Shown in pieces: positions 22,309 to 61,479 of a stretch of DNA of 64,000 nucleotides. The notes under the pieces were generated by a model that was not told the DNA's origin, did no database searches, and saw nothing but the letters and a program-made list of their open reading frames with translations. Position 1 is the stretch's first letter. Each line of letters starts with the position of its first letter. The translations under genes were made by a program, and so were the position numbers. The DNA is from Candidatus Iainarchaeum sp. (GTDB lineage: Archaea > Iainarchaeota > Iainarchaeia > Iainarchaeales > DTGL01), in NCBI GenBank assembly GCA_026413945.1, contig JAOAJX010000006.1, positions 13,577 to 77,576 of the forward strand. Reading direction: 5' to 3'.

Positions 22309-22313
22309 CTGCA

Positions 22314-22760: not shown

Positions 22761-22836
22761 AGGTTACATTGGCTATACAAAAGGTTTAAATATAAGAAAT
22801 AGTATTCTTATGAAATATAACTCGTGAGGTGAGGAT

Positions 22837-23439
22837 ATGATGCGTATGAATTCAAAAGGGCAGGCTTTCTCAACATTCCAGCTGCTTATATCTGCAATAA
22901 TTGCGCTGGCTATACTTGTGATCCTGCTTTCCGTGCTAGGAATAATTCCAAATCTTTTCAATATATCCCAGAATCCAGTGGATGCGATGGTTGACAAGAT
23001 AAAAGATGCGAGGAACAAGCCAGCCGTGCCAGTACAAGGCGGTAAGGTAAATTTCACAAAGGACAACAGAACTGTTACAACTGAAAGCATAGCAAGTGTA
23101 AGTGGTGTTGGTCTTGAAAAAGAACAAATATGCTTAAGCCCGGGCCAATTTATGGGCCAAGCAGAAATAATCAGCAAAGGCCAAGATGGTTCAAAAGAGA
23201 AGCAATGGACTGTAGTAGAGGATGGTTCAAGGATAACTTACAATAAGGACAATGTGCAGACAACATTTACAGTTATTTGCCATTCTTCAGCGACAAGGCT
23301 CAAGACTTACATTGAAGAGGATCTTCCAGAGATAAAGGTAGAGTGGATGGACAGCGGCTCTTTTAAGTGCAAGTGCCTTGATAATGAGCAATTCAAGGAG
23401 CAGCCATGTTGCCTAATAGTGCTTAAATACTCTAGCTAA
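22837..23439 (+). CDS. Pilin-like protein with a canonical archaeal class III signal peptide.
   Basis: The N-terminus is MMRMNSKG|QAFSTFQLLISAIIALAILVILLSVL, with a KG|Q prepilin-peptidase-type site. The 200-aa protein has four Cys in its C-terminal domain. Confidence 0.7.
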   Translation: MMRMNSKGQAFSTFQLLISAIIALAILVILLSVLGIIPNLFNISQNPVDAMVDKIKDARNKPAVPVQGGKVNFTKDNRTVTTESIASVSGVGLEKEQICLSPGQFMGQAEIISKGQDGSKEKQWTVVEDGSRITYNKDNVQTTFTVICHSSATRLKTYIEEDLPEIKVEWMDSGSFKCKCLDNEQFKEQPCCLIVLKYSS

Positions 23440-23452
23440 AAGGCTATGAAAG

Positions 23453-24103
23453 ATGGCCAAAAAAAGCGCATCTAAGAAAAAAAGCCCCAATACTTTTATA
23501 GGACACTCTTGGCAAAGATTTAGCAAACAGAGCTTGAAGAAAGAGCTTTTGGCATCAGCAAAGTTTCTAATTTTTTTTCTGATTTCTTTTTCCATTATTT
23601 TCATTATTTTTTCTTTTCTGCCAATAGAAATTTTCGAATTTTTCACAGCAAAGATATCTGCAGCAATTCTCGAAGCCGTGGGCTATTCTACCAAAATAAT
23701 AACCGATGAACCCGTAAAGATTATTGTGAACTCTAAACACACGATTGAGATAAGCTACCTATGCACAGGAATTATTGAAACTATCGTGGTTGTAAGTGCG
23801 GTTGCAGCATCACTTGGAATAAGTCTCAAGAAAAGGCTCATTGGTGCTTTGGCAGGAGCTATTTTTGTGAATGTGCTTAATATATTAAGGATAATTGTAA
23901 CAATCGTTGCAATATCGAATCTGAAAGATATTGGCTTTGTGGATTTTATACATAATGTGCTTTTCAGGGCAACTCTTTTTGTGGGCATCGCTGTTTATTA
24001 TGCTGTCTGGTTTTTTGCCTCAACAAGAAGCTTTAATCCAATAGCACGTTTTAAGCTATGGCTTTTCCCTAAAATAAATTGTAGAAGAAACAAAAAACAA
24101 TAA
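23453..24103 (+). CDS. Small archaeosortase/exosortase-family-like polytopic membrane protein.
   Basis: It is 216 aa with about 5 TM helices. A candidate active-site Cys lies in a membrane helix (ISYLCTGIIETIVVV) and a conserved Arg in NVLNILRIIVTI, as in EpsH/ArtA-family transpeptidases. The call is family-level only, made by motif pattern and not by a search. Confidence 0.4.
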   Translation: MAKKSASKKKSPNTFIGHSWQRFSKQSLKKELLASAKFLIFFLISFSIIFIIFSFLPIEIFEFFTAKISAAILEAVGYSTKIITDEPVKIIVNSKHTIEISYLCTGIIETIVVVSAVAASLGISLKKRLIGALAGAIFVNVLNILRIIVTIVAISNLKDIGFVDFIHNVLFRATLFVGIAVYYAVWFFASTRSFNPIARFKLWLFPKINCRRNKKQ

Positions 24104-47400: not shown

Positions 47401-49934
47401 ATGAGGAAGGTATGATAAGAAAGGTTGTCGCTGCCAATTCTTCACCAGGCTTTGCAATTGGCTTATTTAGCTTGGAAAGCATCACAAACATCTTTAAAGG
47501 AAATATAGACATTTTGGGAAGTTTGCTGAAGATTGATGATCCATGGACTGGGGCATTGATTGGCTTTATAGCTGGCACACTATACACTTACTGGCAGCAG
47601 AGCCAAAATGTTGGCGTGCTCCAGATTCCTGTTGCTGTAAGAGACCTAAACATATTGGAATTAAAGCTTCTAATACAAAAAGGTCTTGAAGAAGAGATTG
47701 AAAACAAGATCATCGTGGAAAAGGGCAAAGCCAAGATTGAAAACCCACCAGAAAAGCCATTGGGCATTGAGAAGATTGAAATTGTGTTCAAAAACAATGG
47801 CATAAAGCAAGAAGATATATACAAGCCAATATACCGCATACTAAAAGTGAATGGAAGCAAAATGGAATATCAGACTGACTACAATACAAAGAAAAAGAAA
47901 GATGCTGAGGCAATGAAGAAAATGGAGCCATCAGTGATTGGCAGCGAAGAGTATATACAGAAATTCCATCTGCAGTTCAATTCGTACAAGGCAAAACCAA
48001 CCAAACCGGAAGTGAGACCTGAAGTAAGCTGCAAAGTTGGTGGTCTCATTGGCTCAACAGGGAAAGAAGCATTGCCAAAGATTAAGCTTTCATGGAACTG
48101 GAATGATATTGCAATTAATGAATGTGATGAAAGCGGAATCGGCAATTACTGCGATGCAACACAATTTAGCATAGAATTACTTAAGAAGTTAAAAAGAATT
48201 GACGAACTGCTCAGAGGCCAGAAATTAAAGTGCCCTTCGGCTGAAGGCATACTTAGTGAAAAAACACAGGAATTGGATAATCTTAAGTTGGACGTCGCAG
48301 TTACAAAAATAAGAGTTGAAAAAAGTGGATTTAATGCAACAGTTATTGGAACCATAGCAAGCAATAACAAGCAAGAGATGACAGTAAATGCATTTTTGTC
48401 TGTTTCCAAAGGTGGAAATACAATAAACTGCCCAGAAGGTGAAAAAGCAGTAAAGGTTATTGACAAAACCGAAGTAACATGCGTCTTTAACAACCTAGAA
48501 GAAGGCCTTTATGATGCTATGGTCAGGATAAGCCCTCAGCTAACAACATGTAGTGGGTCATGCAAAAACGAAAATTTAGGCAATGACACTATAAGCACAA
48601 AGTTCGCTGTTGGCACAACAGCAGGGATATTTGAAAAATGTGAGCCATACAGTACTGAACGCCTCCCAGATTTTATAGCAGCAAACCCAAACAATGCAAG
48701 TCTTAAAGAAGCATTATCACTTACAAACTTCAACGCATACCTTATGCAAGATGGTTACACCTTGGACTTCAGAAAGGATTTCCATGAGTTCTCAGAAACT
48801 AAAGATTTCTTCAGCACCCCTTCTTGGTACAAAGGAGACATCGGCATAGGCAAGTATTTCTCAAGTGCAGCGCTCTTTGAATTTAAATCTCCATTCCTGA
48901 GACCTGAGTCAGGCTACCTACCAGCAGGCAAGTACAATGTTAGGATAAAAATTGATTATAATAATGGATCTTGGTGCTTGTTTGAAGGCACAATTCCAAA
49001 TGCAAGAATAGAAGTAATTTTTGAGCGTTTAGATACGCCCGATCCAGATTCTGTGTTTTATTATATGCCATTTAACGGTCTTGTTGGTGTTGATAGCCAA
49101 AACGGGCGGCAGGGCTATGGAATAAACTTCAGGCAAAAATCAGAGGAAACCATAAAAATAAATGAAGATGTGAAACAGCCAATAAGAACTACCACAATTG
49201 CAAACTCAATACCAATACCAAATGGCTGGGTTGAAGCCCGCGTTGTTAAGGATTTCAAAACATTGCATGGTGATACGCCTGGTGTTGTGCTCGAAATTGA
49301 AAAAAGCACAGCTGGCTTGAATATGGTATATAGCCCAAGTGTAGCCACACCGCTTTTGCTAAAAGTTAGTGGTGGTGAGAGAAAGAACGCTTATGCATTT
49401 TACCAGCTAACAATAAACAACAGACCACAGGAAGCCTCAAGTAGCTTGTTCTCATGGAGTGGCCTTGTAAAAGGCTGTAAGGACTTCACTGATGCTGAAG
49501 TTACAGAAGCATTTAACTACAGGCGTGATATACGCGGAGGTGTTGGCAAAACTCAATGTGCAGGCAGCTTTTCAACACATCAGTATGGCGTAGAGTGGTG
49601 CAACATTAAGAGGCAAGGAGATGTATTCCTGAAAACAATTCTATTCACACCACAAGAGAGTGTAGCTTTGCTCGAAATTGTAAGCTCTTCCGACAAAGCA
49701 GTGTTCATAAGCCCAAAAGGCACTGGCAATCGCATAGAAACCGGTGGCATCGAAGGTGCAACAATTACATCTGTAGAGAAAATACTTAAGCTTGTGGAAG
49801 AGAAGAAAGTGTGTGTTGCCGGCCTTGGAAGCAATAGCAGGGCAACATTCTTCTGGAATCAGCAACAGCTTATAGATGCTGCATTTAAAAACACGATAGA
49901 AAGCATACCTTCACAATGCATAAAAAGTAGCTGA
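41454..49934 (+). CDS. Giant (2826 aa) type-II membrane surface protein, paralogue C. It contains two families of Cys-rich tandem modules.
   Basis: It has an N-terminal TM FILFIILLFVLLAALVLFLI. Shared modules are AKWVNLEWT, ELYAKTYERIYNVGEEKLCTDKWC and PKIKLSWNWNDIAINECDESGIGNYCDATQFS. Cys-rich repeats lie at about 45890-47400. Confidence 0.85.
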   Translation: MGIMSSLREFYYHLEDRYYEVIDKISTKIPINKLTDAIDKVFPSFILFIILLFVLLAALVLFLIPSVVIPKDVALNVFVQYQDRFGAKRPLEGAKIEIIVGEKVHRITTSENGKIQPIILKPKSEVILRVSKDGFKPNPAEKSITMEDENAQVSFLLTEIIKTQSISFKIIDENTKSPIVKRVSLSFECSNKKANPPKAAEKYTDYSGSIQIDDVEIDCLPLLVTVNAQEYETAENVSVRDGTTIALRKVVELKPVEQKGRLIVNVTFRGELPEENIIVDLEKDTGAAPIFMESGVTSSGQVVFEVLPGKYRVRTKATANYSVAESQFINVGANENRSISLEIQKIIIGSIKIQVFDKDNSKPLANARVTLIKDNTQFACADTNAEGRADFHLSKDENFLLVVDHPDYCVYRLRDVRKSDSILRIGLVKYTQDCGGSISVKVIDFEKRAISGAKVAAFDENGSSLGLKELITDINGIAVFKGFYLGRYKFFAYKGFGSSWSDIIEFSPRLGTEHEAVIVLSIPKATLKLKVTNDGGEGLPFSDVIVKDAYTDKVIKGPLKIENIGGDIDINIDAGFSFYLYINNPDYAPYISERIVLKPEEQRQMHVKLEPKRISGEIAIEFLGLFKDGQNAVVLAAGKEYMAKFKVSVPESAQYDKFGVHLRVGKYNIMEKDFLFIKEIYAGGNPKIIRGISYSPEQGMGHDFSLLSTESAKWVNLEWTRLSGGTIYVYAKVKVKESASSEELKVMWRAWGLRKGLMVRDPEDMALGNAMSDAELYAKTYERIYNVGEEKLCTDKWCTVFKALDIEENVATYIDGSYTAKVGKPYKLYFSIANSSKFETDTFTNVKLKIFNTEKNITFGNYIVYGETVVKGSANANETPYIEVGNIKPNNEIHGEIEFSPKSGKFGSINLRLHDPTKHAHIFEETIAVSIIAARNFTIDFKVGESFQSEAPLLPSGVENTIIARIRDKQSGLEVSDAIVKVKDSTGNTIIQTFTGSLGLAEIKLPSLMPDEKLVLTAEKPDYEEARKEIRTDGNVINLEPAEIGLQLNVFTKREDSVVVRILNKTAMTLKLRAIKLSGEFYGIIDERKVRDWLVGEYVGKEIGPKGKLDIALKVSLSDYGKTINEVKNLEGLVTASVSTSSAYGHEWHADSKVKISVGIGGEVDDPSCLIASIKEWKAKTKSNEVSTDFSVKNNCTLEGKPIALKNLSAKIELKGNRLGSYYVKIGDVGIELSNAYPKILKGTLNPEETLPALLSFAPDGGIVGTAKATIIITAEHYTNKGKQTLSTSIETEIEMISLENCIRYDKSLIRIVDHNSATLKIETKGCKVPIDFMLDTKIAVSEKEFNMKADDNKELIVMPSQEDIPGQYPIYVMVKSANDSEYSFNKLIRVIIEPKGCLKLNRYEFDIYDDANNPYDGFDTALLMNECYKRTEKISISYDERDWWEAIKTGAVWGLVGFVYGGVRSLAAGKTFFGTERPSNVCSKAGYKYCGTKNLCKDERVVVVNNVTCCASECITEETGLHKDICSKKGYNYCGAGNCDLTQGKETVVDGVVCCTGKCKTGTIEKPENICKSAGKYFCKTDEICPDAAYVVVGDVTCCGKPCAKGQIAKPPITQPTTATVKPPSGQKTDEELCKEYYPNSRKITSQEECHPNCTFSRQTAERLVKCCKNDCTGTEKPPTDGTTEGGKPPSETGAPIEGPTIPDCYNTELECAAKAWKKTTLLTGGCDCYAAINCIYDEFGKCYRFGYCNNSKCTTQGTTGPSEPVEGECKIEGYFCKGTVMYWRDSCGNEGIQMDCAESGAICEAGNCVLQEGCKLEGYFCQGTVLHWKDSCGNTGVERDCADAGGICQNGNCVAAESGCQRIGYFCQGTVLHWKDSCGNTGVERDCADAGGICQNGNCVAAEGSSSGTTQPPSGDVCIGCHETLSKCQKANGAGIARICDCELAVTCEYVPSCSVATPCYRFKSCNNSFCSLGSSGRKMNEEGMIRKVVAANSSPGFAIGLFSLESITNIFKGNIDILGSLLKIDDPWTGALIGFIAGTLYTYWQQSQNVGVLQIPVAVRDLNILELKLLIQKGLEEEIENKIIVEKGKAKIENPPEKPLGIEKIEIVFKNNGIKQEDIYKPIYRILKVNGSKMEYQTDYNTKKKKDAEAMKKMEPSVIGSEEYIQKFHLQFNSYKAKPTKPEVRPEVSCKVGGLIGSTGKEALPKIKLSWNWNDIAINECDESGIGNYCDATQFSIELLKKLKRIDELLRGQKLKCPSAEGILSEKTQELDNLKLDVAVTKIRVEKSGFNATVIGTIASNNKQEMTVNAFLSVSKGGNTINCPEGEKAVKVIDKTEVTCVFNNLEEGLYDAMVRISPQLTTCSGSCKNENLGNDTISTKFAVGTTAGIFEKCEPYSTERLPDFIAANPNNASLKEALSLTNFNAYLMQDGYTLDFRKDFHEFSETKDFFSTPSWYKGDIGIGKYFSSAALFEFKSPFLRPESGYLPAGKYNVRIKIDYNNGSWCLFEGTIPNARIEVIFERLDTPDPDSVFYYMPFNGLVGVDSQNGRQGYGINFRQKSEETIKINEDVKQPIRTTTIANSIPIPNGWVEARVVKDFKTLHGDTPGVVLEIEKSTAGLNMVYSPSVATPLLLKVSGGERKNAYAFYQLTINNRPQEASSSLFSWSGLVKGCKDFTDAEVTEAFNYRRDIRGGVGKTQCAGSFSTHQYGVEWCNIKRQGDVFLKTILFTPQESVALLEIVSSSDKAVFISPKGTGNRIETGGIEGATITSVEKILKLVEEKKVCVAGLGSNSRATFFWNQQQLIDAAFKNTIESIPSQCIKSS
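45890..46270 (+). repeat. Three or more divergent ~45-aa Cys-rich modules (C.K.GY.YCG...C....VVV..VTCC...C) inside giant C.
   Basis: The modules are CSKAGYKYCGTKNLCKDERVVVVNNVTCCASEC, CSKKGYNYCGAGNCDLTQGKETVVDGVVCCTGKC and CKSAGKYFCKTDEICPDAAYVVVGDVTCCGKPC. Confidence 0.6.
46758..47172 (+). repeat. In-frame tandem repeat of period 138 nt (46 aa, 8 Cys per unit). The last two units are near-identical at DNA level (46896-47033 vs 47034-47171). An upstream unit at 46758-46895 is about 70% identical.
   Basis: Direct comparison of the two units shows an identical ~110-nt core (ggttacttctgtcaaggaactgttttacattggaaagatagctgtggtaatacgggtgttgagagagactgtgcagatgctggaggaatatgtcagaatgg) differing by 1 SNP plus the unit ends. 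The same duplication appears in the antisense and +2-frame track ORFs (46624-47232, 46825-47328). Confidence 0.9.
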
Positions 49935-49957: not shown

Positions 49958-52900
49958 GTGGAAATCGAAGAAATTGAAGATGAGGAAAATATAATCTATA
50001 GGATAAAGGAACGTTACATCGCTTTTTGTGAAAAAAACAAAATACCAAAAGCACTTCCTATTTTAGTTGCAATAATTCTTATTTTAGCATTAGCTTATAT
50101 TCTTTTTTTTAGTGCAAATCCGCAGCCGAAGCCAAAAGAATTTAGCTTAATAGTATATTTTAGAGATGAAAAAGGTGCTCCGGTAAGCGGACTTGATGTT
50201 AATGTAACAATAAATGGTGAAAAGACACGCAGAAAAACAGACAGCAAAGGAAAAATTTCTATTACCGTGGATGAAAACAGCAATGTAAAGATTTCGTTGA
50301 GAGAAACTCTTTACCTTGATGGTGAATGGACTTTCAAAATAAGCGAGGATACTGAAAGAACAATAACATTAAAGCTAAGGGAAAAGCCACTTGAGAAGAT
50401 TATAGTTCGCTTTGAAACAAGCAAGGGGTCAACAAAAGGAAAATATGTAAAAGTGACGCTTAGCTGCTCAAATAAGGCCATTAATCAATGGGATGAGTTT
50501 GATTCGGATAAGGATGGCATTATAGAAATTACATTGCCGCTTGATTGTGGTGAAGTCAAAGTTGAAAATGCAGAGCTTGAAAACCATTTATTTGAGCGCA
50601 CATTTAAAAAGGGAAAGGACATTTTTGTGACATTTAAAGAAATAGAGATACCCAAGGGAACATTGAGGGTAAAAATAGTAGATGATAAAAAAGAGCTTAT
50701 ACTTAACAAAAACATAACAGTCAGCATTGAAAGGGATGGTGAAAGAAAAAGCTCGTTTACACAAGGTTATGGAATAGTTGAATTTTCTAATCTTATGCCT
50801 GGAAGTTACAATGTTTATGCAGTTGACCCCGAGCAAAGCTACTCTGCGTCAAATACAAATGCAATAGTCAAGGCTAATGAAACTACTGAAGTATTTTTGG
50901 CTTTGAGCAGAAACATCAGTGCGATGCTTCTCATAAGAACAATTGATATGAAAACACTTGGTGCTATCGAAGGCGCAACAGCAAAGGTTATTAAAAATGG
51001 CAACACAATGGTCGAAGAGATAACAAAAGAAAATGGCATTGCTAGGGTACCTCTTTTCGATATGGGTTCTTATGTTATAGTTGTGAAAAGAGATGGTTAT
51101 TTCCCAAAGAAGATTGACTTTAATGTTACATCAGCAAGCGAATCTGTGACTATTGAGCTCGAAAGAATTACGGAAGAAAATATGGGCAGGACTTTTGTAA
51201 AAGTTGTTGATGAGGAAGGCATGGCTGTTAAAGACGCAAAAGTGATTTTCAAATATAAGGAAACTGGCGCAATTGTTGAACTGCAATCAAAACAAAATTA
51301 CGCGCTTACAGACGAAAATGGCACAGCAGAATTTGTTCTTGGAGCCATAAATTCTGATGTTTATCCGTTTGCAATCAAGTACCCGGCTTTTGGTGGGTCG
51401 CCAGCGCAGGCAAAAAAGATAATTCCTGACGAGAACAATTACTTTGAGGTTATCCTTAAGGTTGGTAAAAGCAAAATTAAAGTAATGGCCAAAGATTCCG
51501 AGGGAAAGCCTTTGAATGAGGCATACTTTGAAGTTTTCTCATCATTTGACCATAATTCAGTAACAAAAGGAAAAATGTTGATAATTGACGGCATGACGGA
51601 ATATGAAATTAAGGCAGCCCAAAGTGTCTATGTGGTGGTAAGCAAAGAGGGATATATCAAATATAAAAGCAGAATATTGCAGCTCTGGCCAAATGAGGAA
51701 TATGAAATAAACGCTGTTTTGCTAAAAGAAGGCGAGGTTGCTAAGCCAAAAATTGAGTTTTTAGGTATTTTTGATGGAAATCTCGTTGCCTCTGCACTTA
51801 AAGCGGGCAGAACTTATGTTGTTAAGTTTAATGCCTATTTTCCTAAAGGTTCATCAAAGAATGGCTTTCACTTTAGAATTGGTGAAAACCAAGACGCTAA
51901 CTTAGAACCGGCCTTTATAAAGTTTGTGAATGCAAAAGGTGCTAAAGTAAAGATTGGGCTCACGTATAGGCCGCCAAAATCAGAGAGCATAGAAGAGCTT
52001 GCACCCACAGGAGGGAAATGGGCTTCTATAGAGTGGGATTCAAATGAAACGGGCACATACGAGTTATATTTTGAAATTAAAATTAAGGAAAATGTGAAAC
52101 CAAGGACAGTCATATTATTTTATTATAGAAGCTATGCTATTTTTGATAAGGCTGTGACAAGAGAGCCGTTTGATGAAGAGCTTGGTGAATTACTTAGCAC
52201 TCAATCTAAAGATGGCCTTTACGCTAAAGCCCACAAGTTACAATTTTATGAGGGTTCTGAGAGTGCCTGCAAAGAGCTATTTTGCATTTCTGGCTACTGG
52301 CTATATGACGCGCAAGAAGACATTTTCCTCAAGGAACCTTATTCTGTGATGCTATTTGGTGACTATAACTTTTTGTTCGATATAATTAACAATTCGCAAA
52401 ATGATTACAACAAAATAATTTTGATAGTAAAGAATACTATAAACAACAGGCAAGATAATGCTTTGGCTTTTGAAAGCTTGGTTATTTCAATACCAGCTGG
52501 TCAAAAAGAGCTTAAGCCAAAAGATAACGAATTTAAGGAAGAAGTAATGCCTTTTTCATATAGTGAGCAGCTAAAAGGCAATGTGAAGTTCAAAGGCAGG
52601 ATAGAAATAACTACGAACATAGCTGTTGAAATTGTTGCTGATCGCTACGTTGTTTTTTCAAAAAGCATTCCTGTAAAAGTATACTCTGCTGGAAAGCTCG
52701 ATGTTAACATTCAACCGAATGCCTTTTTGCCATTTGCAAGCCATGACTTAAAAATAATGGTTAGAGATCAAAGCAAAAGCCCGATTAAAGGTGCTTTGGT
52801 TACTGTTCGAAGAACACACGATGATGGTACCGATGAGACCTTGCAAGAAATCACAGATAACAATGGGCTTGTTTCATTCAAAATAAAGGAGTCGTTTCCA

Positions 52901-55900
52901 AAAACCAAAATAGAGGTTCTCGTTGAAAAAATGGGCTATGCGCCTTTCAGATGGGAAAAAAGTGTTGATGGAAATATTGCGAAAATAACACCTGAAAGCA
53001 TAAGTGTTAATCTCAATACTGATTCGAAAACCCAGGAAAAAATAATTTTGAGTATTGAAAACAGAGTCGGCTCAGATTTGTTGGTTAAAAGTGCAAGGTT
53101 TACAGGGGGCTTCAATGGCATACTTGACGAAGCCTCGATGAACGCCAACGCCACAACAATTGTTGGAAAAACTATAAAAACCAAAGACCAGCTTGACTTT
53201 GCCTTAAATTTTTTGCTTTCGCAAAATGCAGAAGATTTGATGCAAAGCAACGTAGATCTTAATGGCGCAATCGAGATAATAGTTTCAGTGCCAAGATTTG
53301 GAGCTGATTATGCCTTAGTGGTCCCTTTTAAAGCAAAAGTCTCTCTTGGTGGGCTCCCGGAAAATGCGCCTTGTATTTCTCTCTCTGGACCAAATGTGCC
53401 TGACTGGAGTGTTGCCACAATAAATGACACTGCAAGGACAGAAGTAAAAATATCAAATATTTGCATAAGCAACGGGAAGCCCATTGACCTTGAAAATTTG
53501 CAAGCAAAGCTTACATGGGCTTCAGGATCAAAAAAAGCAGGAAGTATTGAAATAAGCATAAATTCTCCTGATGGCTCAACTGTAACTAAAATACTCAAGC
53601 CTGGCATATGGACAAAATTATTTGATGGTTTTAAAAACGAGTTGAATTCTGGAACATATAATGCTGTTATAACATTCAAGCCTCTGCCAGACTATGCTGG
53701 AGAAACAGCAAGCTTTACAATTGAAATAGACGGCCAGACAAAAACAGACAAAGGCCTCGCTTTTGTAGGTTCTGATTCTAAAATAGAGGCGAAAATACTA
53801 ATAATTGATCTCAAAGGATGCATAAAGTATCCAAAAGAAAAAATAACCATAAAGCCAAACGAGAAAGAAGCAAAAATAAAAATAGATGCAAATGGCTGCA
53901 ACACGAACATATCTGTATGGCTCTGTAAGGATGATCCAAAGTGCCGCGGTGGTACCGAAGAAGGCGGCATAACTTTGATACCTTATGAAGAGCTTAAGTT
54001 TACAAAAACAGAAACATCAAAAAGTGTTACAGTATATAGGGAGCAGATTGCTGGCCAATATGGCATAACAGTCCATGCAAAAGCACCGGATATGGATTAT
54101 CAGCAAATAGGTACAATAGATGTTGTTGTTGAGCCAACAGAAAGAGAATACTTTAGCATGAGCAGATATGAGTTTACGCTAACTAATTCAACAAACTGGA
54201 AAGATTCCACAGACTTGATAAATAAAATGTGGGTTGAAGATGTAAACATAACTGCAAAGCTCTGCACAGCTTGCCAAAATCCGAAAAAGCTGCCAGATTA
54301 TTGCATAATGAACAGAGCTCTTGAAAAATCAACATTGGACAAGCCAGACTGGTGGGTAAATGTAGCAATATCATTAGGTGTAGGATTAACAGCTGGTGCT
54401 GGATGTGCTATTGCTGCTGCCGAAGCAAAAATTGTAGACCCGACAGCTTTGATAATAATAGCTGGTGCTTGCTTCCTTGGCTCAGCTCTAGCAACATATT
54501 TTACAATTTCTGGTGCAGAATGCGATGTTCAAATGGCCACATATCCTTTTATGGACTATGTTGTAAACTTACCTGACGATTTGAAAGGCCTTAAAGTAAT
54601 GGGCAAACCTTATGACGTAAATTTAGGAAGTGATGAAAGAAGCAGCTATAAGAAAAGAGAGCAGATATTGCCAATAAGCTTCGAAAATAAGGGCAAAGAT
54701 TCTTCGGACAAAAGTGGTTATGGCATACTAGAAATAAAAGCAATCGAACACATTCATGGAGATCCAACACATACAAATCCTAAGATGGAAAGAAACAAAG
54801 CTGACTTTGGATTATTCAACGTTCCAGACACTGAAACTAAAGAATACTCGCAAAAAATCCACTTAAGGTTTATCACAAATGCAAACTTTAGCGAAAAGCT
54901 TACAAAGGCAGGGGCAGAAACAAAATCATGCAGCATCGGGACAAAAAGCGGTTTTACTGGTGATGGGCTTGTTCCAAAAATAAAGCTCGATTGGAGTTGG
55001 AAAACAATTGAATGGAATTTTTGCGATGCTGACAATGAAAACGCAGCATACTGCGATGCGGTGCAGCATAGCATAGCCCTTACAAAAAGGTTAAAAATGC
55101 TTGATGACTTTTTCAAGGCAAACAATTACTCATTTGAATGCCCTGCTCACCCTAAGAATAAGGCAACACAAAGTATAATTGATAGCACTAATGAAAAGGA
55201 ATCTTCAAGGTCTGTCAGTATTGGAAAAGTTGGCGTTTCAAAAGTTGAGTATTCTGCAAACAATATCAGTTTAAGCGTTGTTTTAAGAGCAATGGTAGAA
55301 AACAAAACTGCAGATGAGCAAAGCACAAAGATAAAATTCTTGCTTAAAAACCAAGCTCTTGCAAAAGAGTGCGAAAAAGAAACTATTGTTGGCTCGAATT
55401 CGAGTGTAACGGTTGAGTGCTTATTTGAGAATTTGGTTGCTAATGATGACCCGTATTTTGGTTCTGCTGCTGCTGTTGATTCTAGCAAAGGAAATGCTGA
55501 TAAAAAAGCAGTTACTGTTGCTTTTGTACTCCAGAGCAAGAATAGCGATTGTTGGTTGCCCTATTCCACTAGAAAGATTGAAGGTAAACCTGCTTTGCTT
55601 TATTTCATAGACAGAAATATAAGAAACTGGGGCAACTATGTAAATGTAAAAGAGATAAATTGGCCAGCTGGCTGGCCTGGCTCTAATGCCCAGGAAAAGA
55701 TAGCATTCCTTGAGAAGCTTATTGAGTTCGATACATTGTTAGTAAGGGACGCATATCCTAATAGTTTGAAAAGCGATTTTGTAGAGCATTACACAAAGGA
55801 GACCTTTATGGATGTGCCAACATGGTTTAGTGGAAGCTCCGGCTTTAAAGAGTATTTCTTAGATAAAGACGCTATCGAATTTGAGACAGGTGACAGCACA

Positions 55901-56848
55901 AAGAAGCTTCCGGGGCCTGGCAAGTACAGAATTTTCCTTGAAATTAACTTCAATAACAACTTTGCATTCTTCAGAGAAGGGAAAACAAACGCAAAAGTAA
56001 GAGTAAAGTATTCAAAAATATCCAGCCCAGAACCTGACTCCTTATTCTACTACTGGCCTATTGACGGCGAAGTTGGGCTTAAAACAGGGCGTAACGGGTA
56101 TGGAAGCACATATGAGAATATCAATAAACCAATTATCATTGGATCTTATGGTGGGAGAGAGCTTAAAACAGATTCGAAGAGCAGTAATGCTCTCGTGAAA
56201 GTTTCTACAAATATTGTCGATAAATTTGAGTATGTTAATACAGATCCTAAGACAAGAGGCAACCTCTTAAGCGCAAAAATTTCTGAAAATGGGCTTTCCA
56301 TTAATTTTTCTCCTAACACGGCATCTTTTGTAATAATGAAGGTTTCAAACAATGAAGAAAACCCAATATATGCAAAATATCAACTCTTTAGTGGTGGGGC
56401 AAAGATCAATTGCGGTGACACATTAGCATATTGGGCTGGAATTGGGAATTGCACTTCATTTTCTGGTGAGCCAATTAAAGAGATTAAAAACCAGCCTGAT
56501 GAACATTTCGGGGAAAGCACTTATGGTTTACAGTGGCCAAACAATGGCAAAGCAAGTAGCGTTTACCTAAGCACTATTTTATTTGTACCATCTAATAAGG
56601 AGTTTGAATTGCGTTCAGCATCTAGAAATGTCATTTTCTTGGACAAGGAGCTTAGCCAAAATGCATCTTACAACCTGAAATCAACTCATAGCCATGCGGT
56701 ACGCTCAATAGACGAACTATTAAACATGATGAAGCAGGGGCTTCTTTGTGTTTCTGCTGAAAGTAATGAGATGCAAATATGGTGGAACCCTGAAAGCACT
56801 GATTACAGCACAGCAGCTGAAATACTTTCAAAAAGGGGCTGTAGCTAG
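49958..56848 (+). CDS. Giant (2296 aa) type-II membrane surface protein, paralogue D.
   Basis: It has a GTG start and no in-frame ATG nearby. The N-terminus RYIAFCEKNKIP plus TM ALPILVAIILILALAYILFF parallels A-C. Shared modules are GGKWASIEWDS, GLYAKAHKLQFYEGSESACKELFC and PKIKLDWSWKTIEWNFCDADNENAAYCDAVQHS. Hydrophobic, Gly/Ala-rich helices lie at about 54347-54525. Confidence 0.85.
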   Translation: MEIEEIEDEENIIYRIKERYIAFCEKNKIPKALPILVAIILILALAYILFFSANPQPKPKEFSLIVYFRDEKGAPVSGLDVNVTINGEKTRRKTDSKGKISITVDENSNVKISLRETLYLDGEWTFKISEDTERTITLKLREKPLEKIIVRFETSKGSTKGKYVKVTLSCSNKAINQWDEFDSDKDGIIEITLPLDCGEVKVENAELENHLFERTFKKGKDIFVTFKEIEIPKGTLRVKIVDDKKELILNKNITVSIERDGERKSSFTQGYGIVEFSNLMPGSYNVYAVDPEQSYSASNTNAIVKANETTEVFLALSRNISAMLLIRTIDMKTLGAIEGATAKVIKNGNTMVEEITKENGIARVPLFDMGSYVIVVKRDGYFPKKIDFNVTSASESVTIELERITEENMGRTFVKVVDEEGMAVKDAKVIFKYKETGAIVELQSKQNYALTDENGTAEFVLGAINSDVYPFAIKYPAFGGSPAQAKKIIPDENNYFEVILKVGKSKIKVMAKDSEGKPLNEAYFEVFSSFDHNSVTKGKMLIIDGMTEYEIKAAQSVYVVVSKEGYIKYKSRILQLWPNEEYEINAVLLKEGEVAKPKIEFLGIFDGNLVASALKAGRTYVVKFNAYFPKGSSKNGFHFRIGENQDANLEPAFIKFVNAKGAKVKIGLTYRPPKSESIEELAPTGGKWASIEWDSNETGTYELYFEIKIKENVKPRTVILFYYRSYAIFDKAVTREPFDEELGELLSTQSKDGLYAKAHKLQFYEGSESACKELFCISGYWLYDAQEDIFLKEPYSVMLFGDYNFLFDIINNSQNDYNKIILIVKNTINNRQDNALAFESLVISIPAGQKELKPKDNEFKEEVMPFSYSEQLKGNVKFKGRIEITTNIAVEIVADRYVVFSKSIPVKVYSAGKLDVNIQPNAFLPFASHDLKIMVRDQSKSPIKGALVTVRRTHDDGTDETLQEITDNNGLVSFKIKESFPKTKIEVLVEKMGYAPFRWEKSVDGNIAKITPESISVNLNTDSKTQEKIILSIENRVGSDLLVKSARFTGGFNGILDEASMNANATTIVGKTIKTKDQLDFALNFLLSQNAEDLMQSNVDLNGAIEIIVSVPRFGADYALVVPFKAKVSLGGLPENAPCISLSGPNVPDWSVATINDTARTEVKISNICISNGKPIDLENLQAKLTWASGSKKAGSIEISINSPDGSTVTKILKPGIWTKLFDGFKNELNSGTYNAVITFKPLPDYAGETASFTIEIDGQTKTDKGLAFVGSDSKIEAKILIIDLKGCIKYPKEKITIKPNEKEAKIKIDANGCNTNISVWLCKDDPKCRGGTEEGGITLIPYEELKFTKTETSKSVTVYREQIAGQYGITVHAKAPDMDYQQIGTIDVVVEPTEREYFSMSRYEFTLTNSTNWKDSTDLINKMWVEDVNITAKLCTACQNPKKLPDYCIMNRALEKSTLDKPDWWVNVAISLGVGLTAGAGCAIAAAEAKIVDPTALIIIAGACFLGSALATYFTISGAECDVQMATYPFMDYVVNLPDDLKGLKVMGKPYDVNLGSDERSSYKKREQILPISFENKGKDSSDKSGYGILEIKAIEHIHGDPTHTNPKMERNKADFGLFNVPDTETKEYSQKIHLRFITNANFSEKLTKAGAETKSCSIGTKSGFTGDGLVPKIKLDWSWKTIEWNFCDADNENAAYCDAVQHSIALTKRLKMLDDFFKANNYSFECPAHPKNKATQSIIDSTNEKESSRSVSIGKVGVSKVEYSANNISLSVVLRAMVENKTADEQSTKIKFLLKNQALAKECEKETIVGSNSSVTVECLFENLVANDDPYFGSAAAVDSSKGNADKKAVTVAFVLQSKNSDCWLPYSTRKIEGKPALLYFIDRNIRNWGNYVNVKEINWPAGWPGSNAQEKIAFLEKLIEFDTLLVRDAYPNSLKSDFVEHYTKETFMDVPTWFSGSSGFKEYFLDKDAIEFETGDSTKKLPGPGKYRIFLEINFNNNFAFFREGKTNAKVRVKYSKISSPEPDSLFYYWPIDGEVGLKTGRNGYGSTYENINKPIIIGSYGGRELKTDSKSSNALVKVSTNIVDKFEYVNTDPKTRGNLLSAKISENGLSINFSPNTASFVIMKVSNNEENPIYAKYQLFSGGAKINCGDTLAYWAGIGNCTSFSGEPIKEIKNQPDEHFGESTYGLQWPNNGKASSVYLSTILFVPSNKEFELRSASRNVIFLDKELSQNASYNLKSTHSHAVRSIDELLNMMKQGLLCVSAESNEMQIWWNPESTDYSTAAEILSKRGCS

Positions 56849-56898: not shown

Positions 56899-57315
56899 AT
56901 GCTTTGGCTTACTTTATTGAATATTTTGCTCTTTTGGGAAATAATTTCAGATTTTATGCTGGTTCTTAAAATTTTTGCGATTATAACTATAATCTCTTTT
57001 GTTCTAAACCATGTGGAAAGCAAGCCGCTTGCCGCAATACTAATAGTTGCGATATCTTGGTTTGTGGTATTTGAATGGTGGCAATTCTTTGGTGGAATAT
57101 ATCTCTTATATACGCTCATAACGCTAGGTATAAGCGGCATGCTTGTTGACTTCTTTTTCATTAGTGGTATGGCAGGAGATCGTACACCTCAGCAAGTAGC
57201 TGATGATAATTCACCGGTTAGCTCCTCATTGGACTTGGCCCAAAGAAAAGAAAGATTAGAGGCTGCAAGGCGCATACATGCAATGAAAAAAAGGCCCGGG
57301 GGTATGATGAGATGA
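56899..57315 (+). CDS. Small membrane protein (3-4 TM), unknown function.
   Basis: It is 138 aa with hydrophobic helices. Its end overlaps the next ORF by 4 nt (ATGA). Confidence 0.45.
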   Translation: MLWLTLLNILLFWEIISDFMLVLKIFAIITIISFVLNHVESKPLAAILIVAISWFVVFEWWQFFGGIYLLYTLITLGISGMLVDFFFISGMAGDRTPQQVADDNSPVSSSLDLAQRKERLEAARRIHAMKKRPGGMMR

Positions 57316-57632
57316 GCCAGAGGGGAATTCACCTGATGGTGCTTATATTTGTAGCTCTTTTTGTATTGCTTCTGCTACCGCCGATAATAATGGCTATTTT
57401 TAAGCCAGCAGACTTGTTAATAAGGATACTGTTGACAATAATGATATTTGCAACGGTTAGAAACATGCTTGGCTCAAATGCACTTACAATTGTAATAAGC
57501 AGCGTGTTAGTGTATATACTAGTCATAAAATATGCTCCAATAACTGCTTCACTTTATATATTCTTTTTTGTGCTGTTAGCTTACAACTTTATAGCTGCTG
57601 TAATGTGGGGGCTTACAAGGTTGCCAAGGTAA
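57312..57632 (+). CDS. Small membrane protein (3-4 TM), unknown function.
   Basis: It is 106 aa, almost entirely hydrophobic helices, and is translationally coupled to the previous ORF. Confidence 0.45.
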   Translation: MSQRGIHLMVLIFVALFVLLLLPPIIMAIFKPADLLIRILLTIMIFATVRNMLGSNALTIVISSVLVYILVIKYAPITASLYIFFFVLLAYNFIAAVMWGLTRLPR

Positions 57633-57678: not shown

Positions 57679-58134
57679 ATGGTTGAAGAAAGATTATCAG
57701 AATCGAGACCGATTAAAACATCTACGCTTTTGATGCAAATTATGGAAGACGTGAAAGCACTAAACAGCGCAGTTTCACTTATTTCCCAAAAGATGAGGCA
57801 CATTGCTAGAAATGAGAAAATACTTGGAAGAAACATAATCGTACTAAACAAAAAGATAAAGGAAATTGCTGAAAGCGGTGCTAACCAAGCAATACCTGAA
57901 AGCTTGATAAAGAGAATTGAAGATATTGAAAAAAATTTGGATGATACAAATAAAAAGATCGAGGAAATAAATGTTGTTGTGGCTCATTTACGCAAAGAGT
58001 TTGTAAGCCACGGCGAATTCAATGAGCTGAAGCAAATAGTAGATGCTATAAACCCTTTAGAACTTGTAACAATAGATCAAGTAAAGGAAATTGTTGGTCA
58101 AAGCCAAAAAAAGAGTCAGTCAGTGGGTTTTTAG
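57679..58134 (+). CDS. Coiled-coil protein (151 aa), unknown function.
   Basis: It is charged with heptad-like periodicity (IEDIEKNLDDTNKKIEEINVVVAHLRKEF) and has no TM. Confidence 0.45.
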   Translation: MVEERLSESRPIKTSTLLMQIMEDVKALNSAVSLISQKMRHIARNEKILGRNIIVLNKKIKEIAESGANQAIPESLIKRIEDIEKNLDDTNKKIEEINVVVAHLRKEFVSHGEFNELKQIVDAINPLELVTIDQVKEIVGQSQKKSQSVGF

Positions 58135-59636
58135 TTTTCCTTCTTACAGCAGTCGCTTATACCGGGCCTTATAAGCGCCCTATAATTTTTCCTGTTTTCT
58201 ATAACAACAGCTGCATCATTTCCTGATATTATGCCTATTGTGCTCAAAAAAAGCTTTGCAACATCGCTGTTGATGTCAACCTTATCACTAGCTTCAACAA
58301 TAAGGCCGCAACCATACTTGGCCATTTCGACAAGATCAGCAGCAATTCTTTTGCTTGTATAGTTCGCCGAAAATCTTGGTATTGTCATATTGCTTGCTGT
58401 AAAGAAAACAATCCACCTTAGCTTGCTACTCTCTCCTTTGCTCTTGAAGTAAGTCTTTAGCGCGGCAGTTGTGGCCTGCAGAGAGAGTATGTCTTTTCTG
58501 AAATCATTGCTTTTAAAGAGCAGTATATTTGCTCTGCTAATTCCTCTAGCCCATTTTTTTGTTATGTCTTCTACAGGAGTATAATTTACAAAAAGACCTG
58601 GGTAGATACATTCTATAACTTCTATTATTCTTTGTGCCCCCCTCTTTACAAAAGGGGTTATCTTTGGAGTTTCTTCTATGTCTGCAATTCTCCTTTTCAG
58701 CTCTTCAATAGTTTTGAACCCGCCACGCTTGAAAGTCTCCACTAATACTTGGCTTATAGTATTTTTGCCCAATCCAAAAAGCTCGATAAGAGCTTCTGGA
58801 TCAACATATTCTATCTGGGCGTTTATTTCCAAACCGGAGCGGAAAACCTTTATTGGAAAACCAACTGGATCAAGCTCAACTTTGTATTTTGCTAGCTCAT
58901 CAAATCTTTTGTTTGGATTATTCAAGCCTCTAAAAGAGTCAGTCCAATCAACTATTATAAGTGGAAGATCTGACAGCATAGCGCTTTCAGCCAACACATG
59001 TAGAACATGTAACCTATCGCTTTCCTGACCGCCAAAAACGACAGTTCTTTCAAAAAAGTCAAAAGGTTCCTTTACAGTTGTGTTTGCTTTTGTTATACCA
59101 AGATGTATTTCGCCATGGGTAACCTCTATTATCTCTGCACTATGGCCTCTTTTTGCGATTGGTGCAAAAATTAGATTTATGAGTGGCATAGAATAGAAAG
59201 CTGATTTGGTTTCGTTGTCACAATTATTGAGTTCAGTAAGAGTAACATCGTAAGCACTGCTAACTTTTAAAATCAGCTCTTTGAGTGTTTCGGTTCTCTT
59301 AACAAGCTCATCAAGTTTTTGTGAGATTCTTATTTCATCATAGGGAATATACTCTACGCCAGAGTCGACTAGCACGAACTGATGAGATATATTCGATGAG
59401 CTAATGCTAAGTGTAATTGTTCTTTTTGGAAGATGTTTTAAAAAAGAAGTTACATCACCCTTTGCATGCAATACATGAAAAACTTCAAGAAGAACTGCCT
59501 TTGTACTCTCGCCTTCTTTTTCGTGTATTATAGATAAAATTGTGTTCATGCTATTAGCCTTAACCTCATAGCTAAAGCCCTCTATTTCTCCGACGAGCAA
59601 ATCAGACCAAGGACCTGCAGAAACCTTAATTTCCAT
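58131..59636 (-). CDS. Cytoplasmic 501-aa hypothetical protein.
   Basis: It is a long ORF with balanced composition, no TM and no convincing Walker A motif. It is convergent with the previous ORF with a 4-nt overlap at the stops. Confidence 0.5.
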   Translation of the reverse strand: MEIKVSAGPWSDLLVGEIEGFSYEVKANSMNTILSIIHEKEGESTKAVLLEVFHVLHAKGDVTSFLKHLPKRTITLSISSSNISHQFVLVDSGVEYIPYDEIRISQKLDELVKRTETLKELILKVSSAYDVTLTELNNCDNETKSAFYSMPLINLIFAPIAKRGHSAEIIEVTHGEIHLGITKANTTVKEPFDFFERTVVFGGQESDRLHVLHVLAESAMLSDLPLIIVDWTDSFRGLNNPNKRFDELAKYKVELDPVGFPIKVFRSGLEINAQIEYVDPEALIELFGLGKNTISQVLVETFKRGGFKTIEELKRRIADIEETPKITPFVKRGAQRIIEVIECIYPGLFVNYTPVEDITKKWARGISRANILLFKSNDFRKDILSLQATTAALKTYFKSKGESSKLRWIVFFTASNMTIPRFSANYTSKRIAADLVEMAKYGCGLIVEASDKVDINSDVAKLFLSTIGIISGNDAAVVIENRKNYRALIRPGISDCCKKEN

Positions 59637-60432: not shown

Positions 60433-60819
60433 TTATTTAAAAATTGCTGAAAATTTTGAAGATAAGTTTTTTGCGGTCTTTCCAAGCTTAGCTTTTATTT
60501 CTTTTGATGATTCGCCTATTGACCATCGCCCATCCTCGTTGAATACTTGCTCACCAGCCTTCCTTCCAACCTCTTTAACCATTTCTGAAACTGCTTCTTC
60601 TGGATATGATGTTTGCGCCTTTGCAACCTCTTGAAGTTCCTTCTTTGCTACAGAAGCTGACTTTGATGCTCCTTTTTTGGCAAAGTCATATGCTTTTTTG
60701 GTGAGAGAAAGCAAAAGATATGAGAAAGCAGCCAGTGAGAAAAAAAAACCCATAAAAACTTGTTTTTGCCAAAAAAAGAAAAGCGCTATGAATATAAGCA
60801 CAAAAAAAACTTCAAGCAT
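60433..60819 (-). CDS. Small membrane-anchored protein (2 TM plus soluble C-terminal domain).
   Basis: The N-terminus MLEVFFVLIFIALFFFWQKQVFMGFFFSLAAFSYLLLSL is followed by a hydrophilic domain. Confidence 0.4.
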   Translation of the reverse strand: MLEVFFVLIFIALFFFWQKQVFMGFFFSLAAFSYLLLSLTKKAYDFAKKGASKSASVAKKELQEVAKAQTSYPEEAVSEMVKEVGRKAGEQVFNEDGRWSIGESSKEIKAKLGKTAKNLSSKFSAIFK

Positions 60820-60823
60820 GTTA

Positions 60824-61138
60824 TTATCCCATGCCTATTTCTTCTTGCCCATATGCACCAAAACCAATATCTGGAGAAAGTTCAGTCCTACTCTCCTTTT
60901 TAAAGCTAAGCACCAATGCTAGCACTATGAGGCAAATTGCAATGACTAACCAAAGGTCTTTAAGCATGTCTCTTGCCATGTAGGTTAAAACTAGGGCCAG
61001 TAGAATTACTGCTGTTGTTGAAAAAGATCTGGAAGTAAGGATCATCACCATAAATATGCCAAAAACTATCCAAAGCTGCCCATATTGCATAAAAAGCATC
61101 ATAAGGACAATTGAAACCGCAATCATTAGAGTATCCAT
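60824..61138 (-). CDS. Small membrane protein (3 TM).
   Basis: It is a 104-aa hydrophobic ORF in tandem with its neighbours on the minus strand. Confidence 0.4.
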   Translation of the reverse strand: MDTLMIAVSIVLMMLFMQYGQLWIVFGIFMVMILTSRSFSTTAVILLALVLTYMARDMLKDLWLVIAICLIVLALVLSFKKESRTELSPDIGFGAYGQEEIGMG

Positions 61139-61146
61139 TTGCTCAC

Positions 61147-61479
61147 CTAATCTTTCAGAAATTCTGGCTTTTTGCTTCCAGCTGGGATTTTTTCAAACAT
61201 GCCACTGAAAAGAGTTTGGATTAGGAAAAGAATGACAGGTATAAGTATAAGTTCGGGGTATTTTACGAAAGTAAGATAGACAACTAAGGTTGTAAGCACG
61301 GCTGCAATCTTTGCTGACCCAAGTTGTTTTTTGAACCAGCCAAATATCCATATAGTGTAAACTATGCAGAGAACAACCCAAAGATTTGTTACGAAGTCAT
61401 TTCTGCCAAAGATAGTATCAAGCACATCCATGAAATAATATTGTTGTTTCCACAATAAAATCCTTTCTTTGACAAGCAA
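61147..61479 (-). CDS. Small membrane protein (3 TM).
   Basis: It is a 110-aa hydrophobic ORF and the first gene of a three-gene minus-strand operon. Confidence 0.4.
   Translation of the reverse strand: MLVKERILLWKQQYYFMDVLDTIFGRNDFVTNLWVVLCIVYTIWIFGWFKKQLGSAKIAAVLTTLVVYLTFVKYPELILIPVILFLIQTLFSGMFEKIPAGSKKPEFLKD

Follow-up and report, generated by a model that had tools for sequence, protein, structure and literature searches.

In polytopic membrane proteins, helical hairpins consist of two transmembrane helices joined by a tight turn, and they are inserted as a unit by Sec/YidC. Monotopic hairpins, such as those of caveolin, reticulon-type and lipid-droplet proteins, have a central Pro/Gly turn, measure about 30-33 residues, enter the membrane from the cytoplasm and leave it on the same side. 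Archaeosortase and exosortase signals (PGF-CTERM, PEP-CTERM) pair a short motif with a transmembrane helix. Giant surface proteins, termed SPEARE, have reportedly been found in Nanohaloarchaeum, a DPANN archaeon; to our knowledge, DPANN lineages account for a large share of archaeal diversity, and almost all of their surface and cell-cell contact proteins are uncharacterised. In class I viral fusion proteins (Ebola GP2, avian sarcoma/leukosis virus Env, arenavirus GP2) the internal fusion loop is a Gly-rich hydrophobic element that stands between strands and has a Cys pair at its base, the loop of Ebola GP2 being closed by a disulfide. Two antiparallel strands carry the fusion loop of Ebola GP2 (PMC3347318), and the Lassa fusion domain requires a disulfide (PMC10831964). 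Here we describe a hydrophobic segment inside a very large protein, giant D, encoded with three other giants (A, B and C) on a 64,000-nucleotide stretch of Candidatus Iainarchaeum sp. DNA (contig JAOAJX010000006.1, positions 13,577-77,576; this whole stretch is called the window, and all coordinates are window positions). The giants follow each other on the + strand in the order A (24174-32252), B (34060-41379), C (41454-49934) and D (49958-56848), with a 563-residue protein encoded between A and B (32258-33949). An NCBI protein from a Candidatus Diapherotrites metagenome-assembled genome has the same sequence as giant D (100% identity).

The segment of giant D (residues 1465-1519) may be compared with the polytopic anchors. 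Like them, it has two helices of 24-25 residues, a short Pro/Gly/Asp turn and a near-uncharged block of approximately 56 residues, with flanks that would both lie on one side of the membrane; a nearly uncharged block with a helix-breaking turn is the textbook helical hairpin (hairpin insertion of the von Heijne type). The interpretation that we favour, with moderate confidence, is that residues 1465-1519 form a transmembrane helical hairpin which re-inserts into the archaeon's own cytoplasmic membrane and leaves both flanks outside. This interpretation covers D and its D-like relatives; giant C, with its short helices and an extracellular-looking insert at the tip, and giant B fall outside it. 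Unlike the polytopic anchors, the hairpin of D lies between ectodomains of about 1400 and 775 residues in a protein that already has a signal anchor; co-varying cysteines bracket it where it leaves a beta domain, its turn lacks the usual Lys/Arg, and its paralogues carry large inserts at the tip. A hairpin anchor in itself is ordinary; the placement between two very large ectodomains, the Cys bracket and the hypervariable tip inserts of the paralogues are not known to us from described systems.

A preliminary description, made from the sequence of the window, had held that each giant carries a strongly hydrophobic segment about three-quarters along its length. The peptides quoted there are present in the frames of the giants, at or near the places assigned to them: in D at 54350-54427 and 54449-54514, in C at 45807-45863, 47451-47495 and 47547-47594, in A at 30375-30434 and 30486-30515, and in B at 38743-38775. 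The stated position was loose: the segments lie at 64% in D and in B, at 77% in A, and at 51% and 72% in C. Hydrophobicity was expressed as the Kyte-Doolittle mean over 19 residues (KD19) and, roughly, as a free energy summed from central-position values of the Hessa scale with no position weighting. By these measures the term strongly hydrophobic fits helix 2 of D (Table 1), is borderline for helix 1 of D and for helix 1 of A (KD19 1.89, about +1.7 kcal/mol), and does not fit C, whose best window reaches KD19 1.22 (about +5.8 kcal/mol), or B, whose best window (1.38) is located elsewhere than the quoted 11-residue patch. Helix 2 of A (KD19 1.42) is weak on the crude free-energy scale. The N-terminal helix of each giant is, for comparison, strongly hydrophobic (KD19 2.8-3.6). 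When the residues of each ectodomain were shuffled, the observed maximum was reached in 28% of the trials for D, 62% for A, 99.8% for B and 100% for C, B and C being less hydrophobic than their own shuffled versions. Since shuffled sequences reach the observed values, the hydrophobicity of a single sequence is no evidence by itself; it was dropped as a basis for the claim after this test, and positional conservation was used instead.

An exhaustive search with a hidden Markov model of the C-terminal region yielded 790 clusters at E <=0.001 (529 at <=1e-30), most of them 2300-3000 residues long. The family of C and D is almost confined to Iainarchaeota: species-representative relatives are nearly all labelled Candidatus Iainarchaeum, and the complete genome GW2011_AR10 is among the genomes that carry relatives. 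Literature searches gave no description of the family, and searches of PDB sequences returned no solved relative. As positional ruler we used the invariant motif YCDATQFS, which also served as the search pattern for relatives. The ectodomain's most hydrophobic window fell 185-335 residues upstream of this motif in 52 of the 91 full-length representatives, a span of 150 residues for which the chance expectation is 6.4% (binomial p ~5e-38, a value that treats the sequences as independent, which they are not). All 28 representatives with KD19 >=1.9 have their peak at this site, with values up to 3.02 that match the N-terminal anchors, and many relatives have a homologous helix 2 of KD19 2.5-3.0. 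All six D orthologues (35-100% identity) have the top peak of the ectodomain at the aligned helix-2 site; the sequence of the helices drifts in them, their hydrophobic character is kept and the flanks are highly conserved. Drifting sequence with retained hydrophobicity is the usual pattern of lipid-facing helices, and the combination with conserved flanks argues for such helices here. As judged from these alignments, positional conservation, not single-sequence hydrophobicity, is the signal beyond chance.

The D-like module has a constant order: a strand ending in a conserved Cys (C.W.EA), a Gly/Ala-rich helix, a tight turn, a strongly hydrophobic helix, the motif (E/D)DPC(D/E) and the strand DYVINL. 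The two bracket cysteines, C1436 and C1522 in D, are each at least 90% conserved among 44 D-like sequences, and a Cys stands at the C1522 site in 53 of 55 D-like representatives. They co-vary, both being present in 41 sequences and both absent in 2, with the first shifted by two residues in the remaining one (Fisher p 0.003). The block between the flanks has a mean length of 56 residues in 26 typical D-like relatives and includes on average fewer than two charged residues (0.73 K/R, 1.00 D/E), and the downstream flank is strongly acidic (mean net charge -2.4). The co-variation and the acidic downstream flank suggest that both ends of the block lie on one side, in which case the number of crossings would be even. 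Conserved cysteines also occur elsewhere in the C-terminal region, two of them as a pair near the C-terminus; together with the bracket they agree with both flanks being outside. The turn of D contains a single Lys and a single Asp and is preceded, at the end of helix 1, by a Glu; in relatives the turn consists of GP, CPPC, CPxC, QGG or short polar residues. Helix 2 of D is hydrophobic on all faces, with no polar stripe (hydrophobic moment 0.09). Close D orthologues keep the small-residue pattern GxGxxxGxGC in helix 1. Each helix of D has one Cys (C1483 at 54404-54406, C1505 at 54470-54472), 11 residues from the centre of the turn, and the pair also occurs in the relatives P0002 and P0012; its symmetry about the turn would fit antiparallel packing of the helices.

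Two AlphaFold models were made. The first (D residues 1280-2296, 1017 residues, 12-sequence alignment; mean predicted local distance difference test (pLDDT) 75) placed helices at model residues 187-210 and 216-237, corresponding to D 1466-1489 and 1495-1516, with pLDDT 50-59, and downstream of the segment its secondary structure was mostly beta. In the second (331 residues, 44-sequence alignment; mean pLDDT 84) the helices were at model residues 76-100 and 106-129, equivalent to D 1465-1489 (25 residues) and 1495-1518 (24 residues), with pLDDT 47-68, and the flanking beta strands had 86-98. Helices of this predicted length would be long enough for a bilayer, and their connection by a short Asp-Pro turn speaks for a hairpin; the contrast in pLDDT between strands and helices suggests that the helices are not confidently packed into the fold. 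By these models the D segment is neither a beta sandwich nor a confidently buried core helix, the findings by which the preliminary description would have given up its proposal, and the conservation among orthologues that it had called for was found in the six D orthologues and across the large family. What holds of it is that D contains a conserved helix-turn-helix that could insert into a membrane. In Foldseek searches the 1017-residue model gave generic matches to multi-Ig proteins (alpha-2-macroglobulin, complement, PapD-like) with template modelling scores of ~0.09, which are uninformative; the 331-residue hairpin module had no match below E 0.001 in PDB or BFVD, its best PDB match being a protocadherin (E 0.029), with archaeal Fsx1 at E 0.37 and the best viral match at E 0.06.

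Table 1. Coordinates of features in the window discussed in the text.
Feature	Position	Strand	Remarks
Giant D	49958-56848	+	Open reading frame; 2296 aa; D-like family member
D N-terminal signal anchor	50054-50110	+	aa 33-51, LPILVAIILILALAYILFF; KD19 3.03
Upstream bracket cysteine C1436	54263-54265	+	End of last beta strand before the hairpin (predicted strand E37-48, model 2)
D helix 1	54350-54427	+	aa 1465-1490, WWVNVAISLGVGLTAGAGCAIAAAEA; Gly/Ala-rich; KD19 1.85; ~+1.9 kcal/mol; borderline transmembrane
D turn	54428-54448	+	aa 1491-1497, KIVDPTA; break between the two predicted helices
D helix 2	54449-54514	+	aa 1498-1519, LIIIAGACFLGSALATYFTISG; KD19 2.02; ~-0.2 kcal/mol; transmembrane-grade
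Downstream bracket cysteine C1522	54521-54523	+	In acidic motif (E/D)(D)PC(D/E)
DYVVNL strand	54554-54571	+	Opens the C-terminal ectodomain; family anchor motif DYVINL; conserved in D-like proteins; predicted strand E134-145, pLDDT 88-98
YCDAVQHS	55049-55072	+	Ruler motif of D; most conserved of the C-terminal region; C, D and Q invariant in alignments A1-A4
C helix 1	45792-45881	+	aa 1447-1476, AIKTGAVWGLVGFVYGGVRSLAAGKTFFGT; homologue of D helix 1; internal Arg
C Cys-rich repeat insert between helices	45882-47450	+	~523 aa; no Pfam match
C amphipathic segment and helix 2	47451-47603	+	FAIGLFSLESITNIF ... DDPWTGALIGFIAGTLYTYWQQS
A hydrophobic pair	30354-30533	+	GLYFGACLAVSFICHVVTGL-DPLG-IRALINAMIDCLPATIGGLFGTT; aa 2068-2114; D-P turn as in D
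B patch	38743-38775	+	LAWLGLLGGLL; 11 aa; below any transmembrane threshold
FlaI/PilB-like ATPase	17659-19938		Upstream of A
PilC/FlaJ-like platform protein	19951-22308		785 aa
Small protein, prepilin-like N-terminus	22314-22760		MMNKG/YFWPF...
Small protein, prepilin-like N-terminus	22837-23439		...SKG/QAFSTFQLLISAII...
Exosortase/archaeosortase-family protein	23453-24103		TIGR04178, 35.1 bits (cut-off 23)
Two small multi-pass membrane proteins	56899-57632	+	Right after D; 138 and 106 aa
D-downstream conserved genes	56899-57632, 57679-59636, 60433-61479		

If residues 1465-1519 do form such a hairpin, giant D would start with a cytoplasmic N-terminus of about 30 residues, as is also suggested by the Lys-rich KERYIAFCEKNKIPKA before the anchor, and the signal anchor (residues 33-51) would lead into a first ectodomain of about 1400 residues with Ig-like repeats. 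Helix 1 would then run from outside to inside, the 7-residue turn would lie at the cytoplasmic face, and helix 2 would return to the outside, where a second, beta-rich ectodomain of about 775 residues would follow. The hairpin would emerge between two strands of the beta domain, its base being held outside by C1436 and C1522, probably through a disulfide, and the weaker helix 1, joined by the Pro/Gly turn, would insert together with helix 2. This second anchor would close the Ig-like stalk into a surface loop and place the C-terminal region at the membrane, probably beside the small multi-pass proteins encoded just downstream. The preliminary description had seen a conflict between the hydrophobic segments and the premise that everything after the N-terminal helix is extracellular; two helices would cross the membrane twice, so that both flanks stay outside and the conflict disappears, in agreement with the co-varying cysteines.

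The neighbouring genes are conserved. A homologue of the 138-residue protein follows a D-like giant in 45 fetched loci, and one of the 106-residue protein does so in 43, with identities down to ~30%. In most fetched loci five small multi-pass membrane proteins, together with a 151- and a 501-residue protein, are encoded near the D-like giant (identities to ~30%); the last two had no family match. The five conserved multi-pass proteins downstream suggest, therefore, that the operon encodes integral-membrane partners, with which the C-terminal region of D may be in contact; this genomic setting is in keeping with the hairpin interpretation.

Several observations weigh against the hairpin interpretation. 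The Cys-rich or Thr/Pro/Ser-rich inserts of 15-750 residues found at the hairpin tip in C-like relatives look extracellular, and if they are, the homologous helices would make no double crossing there. In some D-like proteins the loop between the bracket cysteines has 14-27 residues (e.g. GWSAFWRLSWSKMF), as in P0052 (Trp-rich, amphipathic), P0116 and P0048, and is thus too short to cross twice. P0048 and P0116 fit the monotopic hairpins, which have a central Pro or Gly turn and enter and leave on one side, better than a double crossing. The caveolin-type anchors differ in that entry would here be from the exterior and in that the length of most family members suffices for a full crossing. A positive-inside bias at the turn was not found, Lys/Arg being rare in the whole block, and helix 1 of D is borderline on the crude scale. 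The density of N-glycosylation sequons did not separate the regions. Finally, the sequence features, their conservation, the cysteine co-variation, the predicted helices and the synteny are observed here, and from them we infer membrane integration, its sidedness, the disulfide and any contact with the small membrane proteins. What the whole family has in common is therefore a hydrophobic element that leaves a beta domain on a cysteine-closed stem, with an interfacial loop at one extreme and a full hairpin at the other.

The alternative that survives best, though we think it unlikely, is that the Gly/Ala-rich helices of A-D pack against each other, or against themselves, in a glycine-zipper bundle outside the membrane that holds the four giants together. 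Each of the four paralogous or co-encoded giants has a Gly-rich hydrophobic element, the gene order B-C-D is conserved, and small-xxx-small patterns are conserved in helix 1. The low pLDDT of the helices in the monomer models would be expected of an element that folds only in a complex, and the C-like helices, short for a bilayer, are long enough for a bundle. Helix 2 of the D-like proteins is, however, hydrophobic all round, as lipid-facing helices are, the element of B is not conserved, and that of A is not homologous in position. The oligomerisation role mentioned in the preliminary description is possible.

The second alternative, which we regard as improbable, is that the Cys-bracketed loop is translocated with the ectodomain in a shielded form and, on contact, enters the membrane of another cell, a partner or a host, to which the giant would thereby form a bridge. 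A Gly-rich hydrophobic loop between two beta strands, its base closed by co-varying cysteines (the disulfide is deduced here), does resemble the class I internal fusion loops. Because of this likeness of the Cys-closed layout the idea was not dismissed; the positive argument for it is limited to the same analogy. C-like and several D-like segments are moderately hydrophobic and Gly- or Trp-rich (IFGGGGIGGIIGGSAGQIV, GWSAFWRLSWSKMF); these could pass the translocon and insert only part-way, and the short Trp- or Gly-rich loops of some family members could likewise insert only part-way. The family is, moreover, confined to a DPANN lineage. Against this stands the strength of helix 2, which is transmembrane-grade in D and many relatives. 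In the Sec pathway, helices that match a signal anchor in hydrophobicity stop transfer, and the translocon of the producing cell would therefore be expected to retain this helix in the producer's own membrane. The D-like block, usually 45-65 residues long and transmembrane-grade, is also far longer than a fusion loop; no fold similarity to fusion proteins was found with Foldseek in PDB or among viral models, and there is no evidence of a trigger or a target membrane for the D-like module. No heptad-repeat or refolding machinery and no trimeric refolding core turned up, no coiled-coil analysis of D having been made. At the loop tip of C an insert of 523 residues would block a tip-first insertion, and the lifestyle of Iainarchaeota is not established. 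No positive evidence was found for the insertion into a second membrane that the preliminary description had proposed.

A broader version, to which we give little credence, takes the module as an outward-acting insertion device: the weak, C-like and Trp/Gly-rich versions would enter the partner's membrane, the D-like ones would hold the complex in that of the producer, and the four giants with type IV pilus-like machinery would bridge two cells. If it were true, this would be a cellular, non-viral and non-fusexin membrane-insertion system in archaea.

A single crossing, with helix 2 alone (in A, helix 1 alone) spanning the membrane and a cytoplasmic C-terminal region, is very improbable: the weakness of D helix 1 and A helix 2 on the crude scale and the helical, Lys-rich, Cys-poor (6 in 578 residues) C-terminal 580 residues of A, which would suit a cytoplasmic domain, are outweighed by the co-varying bracket cysteines of D-like proteins, the further conserved cysteines of the C-terminal region, with a pair near the C-terminus, and an uncharged block of ~56 residues, twice a membrane span. 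That the segments, mainly those of B and C, are ordinary hydrophobic stretches of very long proteins is just as improbable: shuffles that match or exceed the observed hydrophobicity in 28-100% of the trials, an 11-residue B patch lost in AR10 and a best C window of KD19 1.22 are set against family-wide motifs in the C helices and a positional conservation of the D/C module far beyond chance, by which this idea is refuted for D.

The consequences differ between the interpretations. The hairpin in the archaeon's own membrane, if true, would be a useful but ordinary finding on topology. It would give D-like proteins three membrane helices and two ectodomains, the first of them closed into a loop, and this would affect their modelling, expression and search in tomograms. 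If the insertion into a partner's membrane, a less probable reading, were true, it would point to proteins with which a DPANN cell acts on the membrane of another cell, and of such proteins no candidates are known to us. What is defined in either case is a lineage-specific family of ~790 clusters with a conserved internal membrane module, in a region for which the searches gave neither a Pfam match nor a solved relative. Experimental handles are offered by the two bracket cysteines, the 55-residue hairpin and the hypervariable tip inserts of the paralogues.

The four giants, which the preliminary description had treated as equivalent, were found to differ. The alignment of C with D covers residues 12-1413 and resumes at C 2108-2804 / D 1571-2279, the hydrophobic region lying in the gap between; B aligns with C and D in the N-terminal two-thirds only, and A over approximately 400 residues only. 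From these unequal alignments it follows that the four segments are not four copies of one element. Both helices of C are homologous to those of D, with a shared DWW start in helix 1 and a D-P start in helix 2. In C-like relatives helix 1 has the conserved motif W..A(M/I)K.G..W(G/A)L and helix 2 the motif (N/D)P(W/F)..G...G..GT...Y.SQ(D/E), of about 17 hydrophobic residues; with 12-17 hydrophobic residues each, the helices are too short, and in C too polar, to span a bilayer. They flank a 523-residue insert, and C residues 1471-1999 (529 residues) contain 60 Cys. At the same point C-like relatives have unrelated inserts of 15-750 residues that are Cys-rich (up to 11%), Thr/Pro/Ser-rich, Ala-rich, or coiled-coil and acidic. 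The insert of C has several repeat types, among them two with three copies each: C-x6-C-x5-C-x12-CC-x3-C and CKIEGYFC.G......DSCGN......C...G.C..GNC.

The hydrophobic pair of A lies downstream, not upstream, of the CDAVQ motif of A, and for this reason is not positionally homologous to that of D. The C-terminal 793 residues of A had no relatives by homologue search, metagenome scan or tblastn/blastp against all fetched loci and proteins. The C-terminal 580 residues, helical and Lys-rich as read from the sequence, include 578 with 6 Cys. The pair may form a hairpin, may cross the membrane once ahead of a cytoplasmic helical tail, or may do neither. The patch of B is short; a 38%-identical orthologue has retained it (DPFEWIGVVGMLM), but the AR10 genome has FWEGLPYGERLI in its place, and we regard the patch as an ordinary short hydrophobic element.

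The domains recognized in the giants are N-terminal and lie upstream of the hydrophobic segments (CarboxypepD_reg, Big_1 and SpaA-type Ig-like in Pfam); PF13620 matched A-D with 66-75 bits, compared with a curated cut-off of 32.3. In the N-terminal 1000 residues of D, CarboxypepD_reg, Big_1 and MG4 Ig-like repeats were found, and the C-terminal 900 residues had no Pfam match. The C-terminal parts of A-D and the Cys-rich insert of C had no credible match in Pfam or NCBIfam, nor in searches of PDB sequences, the few matches obtained being at chance level (E 0.04-0.16), far under the curated cut-offs. The giants are like the SPEARE proteins in being very large, lineage-specific, multi-domain surface proteins of DPANN archaea, a likeness of category only; the domain content of the SPEARE proteins reportedly differs from that of the giants.

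Two further motifs of the D-like proteins may be recorded. At least ten D-like representatives (among them P0039, P0128, P0062, P0060, P0105, P0115, P0106, P0103, P0017 and P0005) have CPPC, CPxC, CxPC or CGPPC exactly at the hairpin turn, and these cysteines could be a redox or metal-binding site or could staple the turn by a disulfide. In the C-terminal ectodomain the sequence EHIHGDPTH (54746-54772, D residues 1597-1605) has its E, H, I, H, D, P and H invariant in the six D orthologues; it is kept in the consensus of 44 D-like sequences and missing in C. Its clustered histidines may bind a metal.

In all four giants and in distant relatives, 26-45 conserved residues, presumably cytoplasmic, precede the N-terminal helix (24174-24300, 34060-34140, 41454-41590 and 49958-50055), with the rough pattern Y..(L/M)E(D/E)(K/R)(Y/W)(Y/F)..(L/I)(D/E)K....IP. 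This stretch could be a recognition element for an adjacent ATPase or platform protein. A class III (prepilin) signal peptide has a short basic leader, Gly or Ala at position -1 and a hydrophobic helix at the very N-terminus; it was ruled out for the giants because of the 26-45 conserved residues in front of the helix. Class III-like N-termini were seen instead in the open reading frames 22837-23439, 22314-22760 and 32258-33949. The last of these, the 563-residue protein encoded between A and B, has a short basic leader followed by a hydrophobic helix (VKVRG/FNLFTALLAMIIVV...) and no match in Pfam or NCBIfam; it resembles a pilin-like subunit of very large size.

Immediately upstream of giant A is a type IV pilus-like gene set (17659-24103; Table 1). 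It includes, just before A, a gene of the exosortase family, whose best named match was ArtD, with a score under the ArtD cut-off. An archaeosortase signal was considered for the internal helices of the giants and ruled out: unlike PGF-CTERM and PEP-CTERM segments, which they resemble in the presence of a transmembrane helix near a short motif, these segments lie within the proteins, about 775 residues before the C-terminus, and have no basic tail and no PGF- or PEP-like motif. The C-termini of A-D are polar, and no C-terminal sorting signal was found in any of them. A second type IV pilus-like cluster occupies 77-11236. Its ATPase (3374-5113) carries a 4Fe-4S ferredoxin domain at the N-terminus, and the platform protein (5079-6586) is split. 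The C-terminus of a 1525-residue membrane protein (6659-11236) consists of a hydrophobic helix and a basic tail, and the open reading frame 77-1447 has a C-terminal transmembrane helix followed by RRYNIVKEK; these two C-termini look more like sortase signals than anything in the giants.

Scans of the window for Rfam families and tRNA genes gave no matches. Two of the fetched loci are labelled Chloroflexi bacterium (L049) and Thaumarchaeota archaeon (L058) and are probably mis-binned contigs, since all the others come from Iainarchaeum, Micrarchaeota or an unclassified archaeon. Downstream of D, three small membrane genes (60433-61479) are on the opposite strand here; elsewhere (L001, 17793-18800) they follow directly downstream in the same orientation, and the flip of strand therefore points to a local inversion. 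On the minus strand, a run of small open reading frames (14895-17552) has pilin-like N-termini, for example 14895-15653 (...KAQ/ASITDALFMLVIVATLAAG) and 16148-16828 (MMEFTLSKINLLILAIALFAII); these are probably further pilins of the same system.

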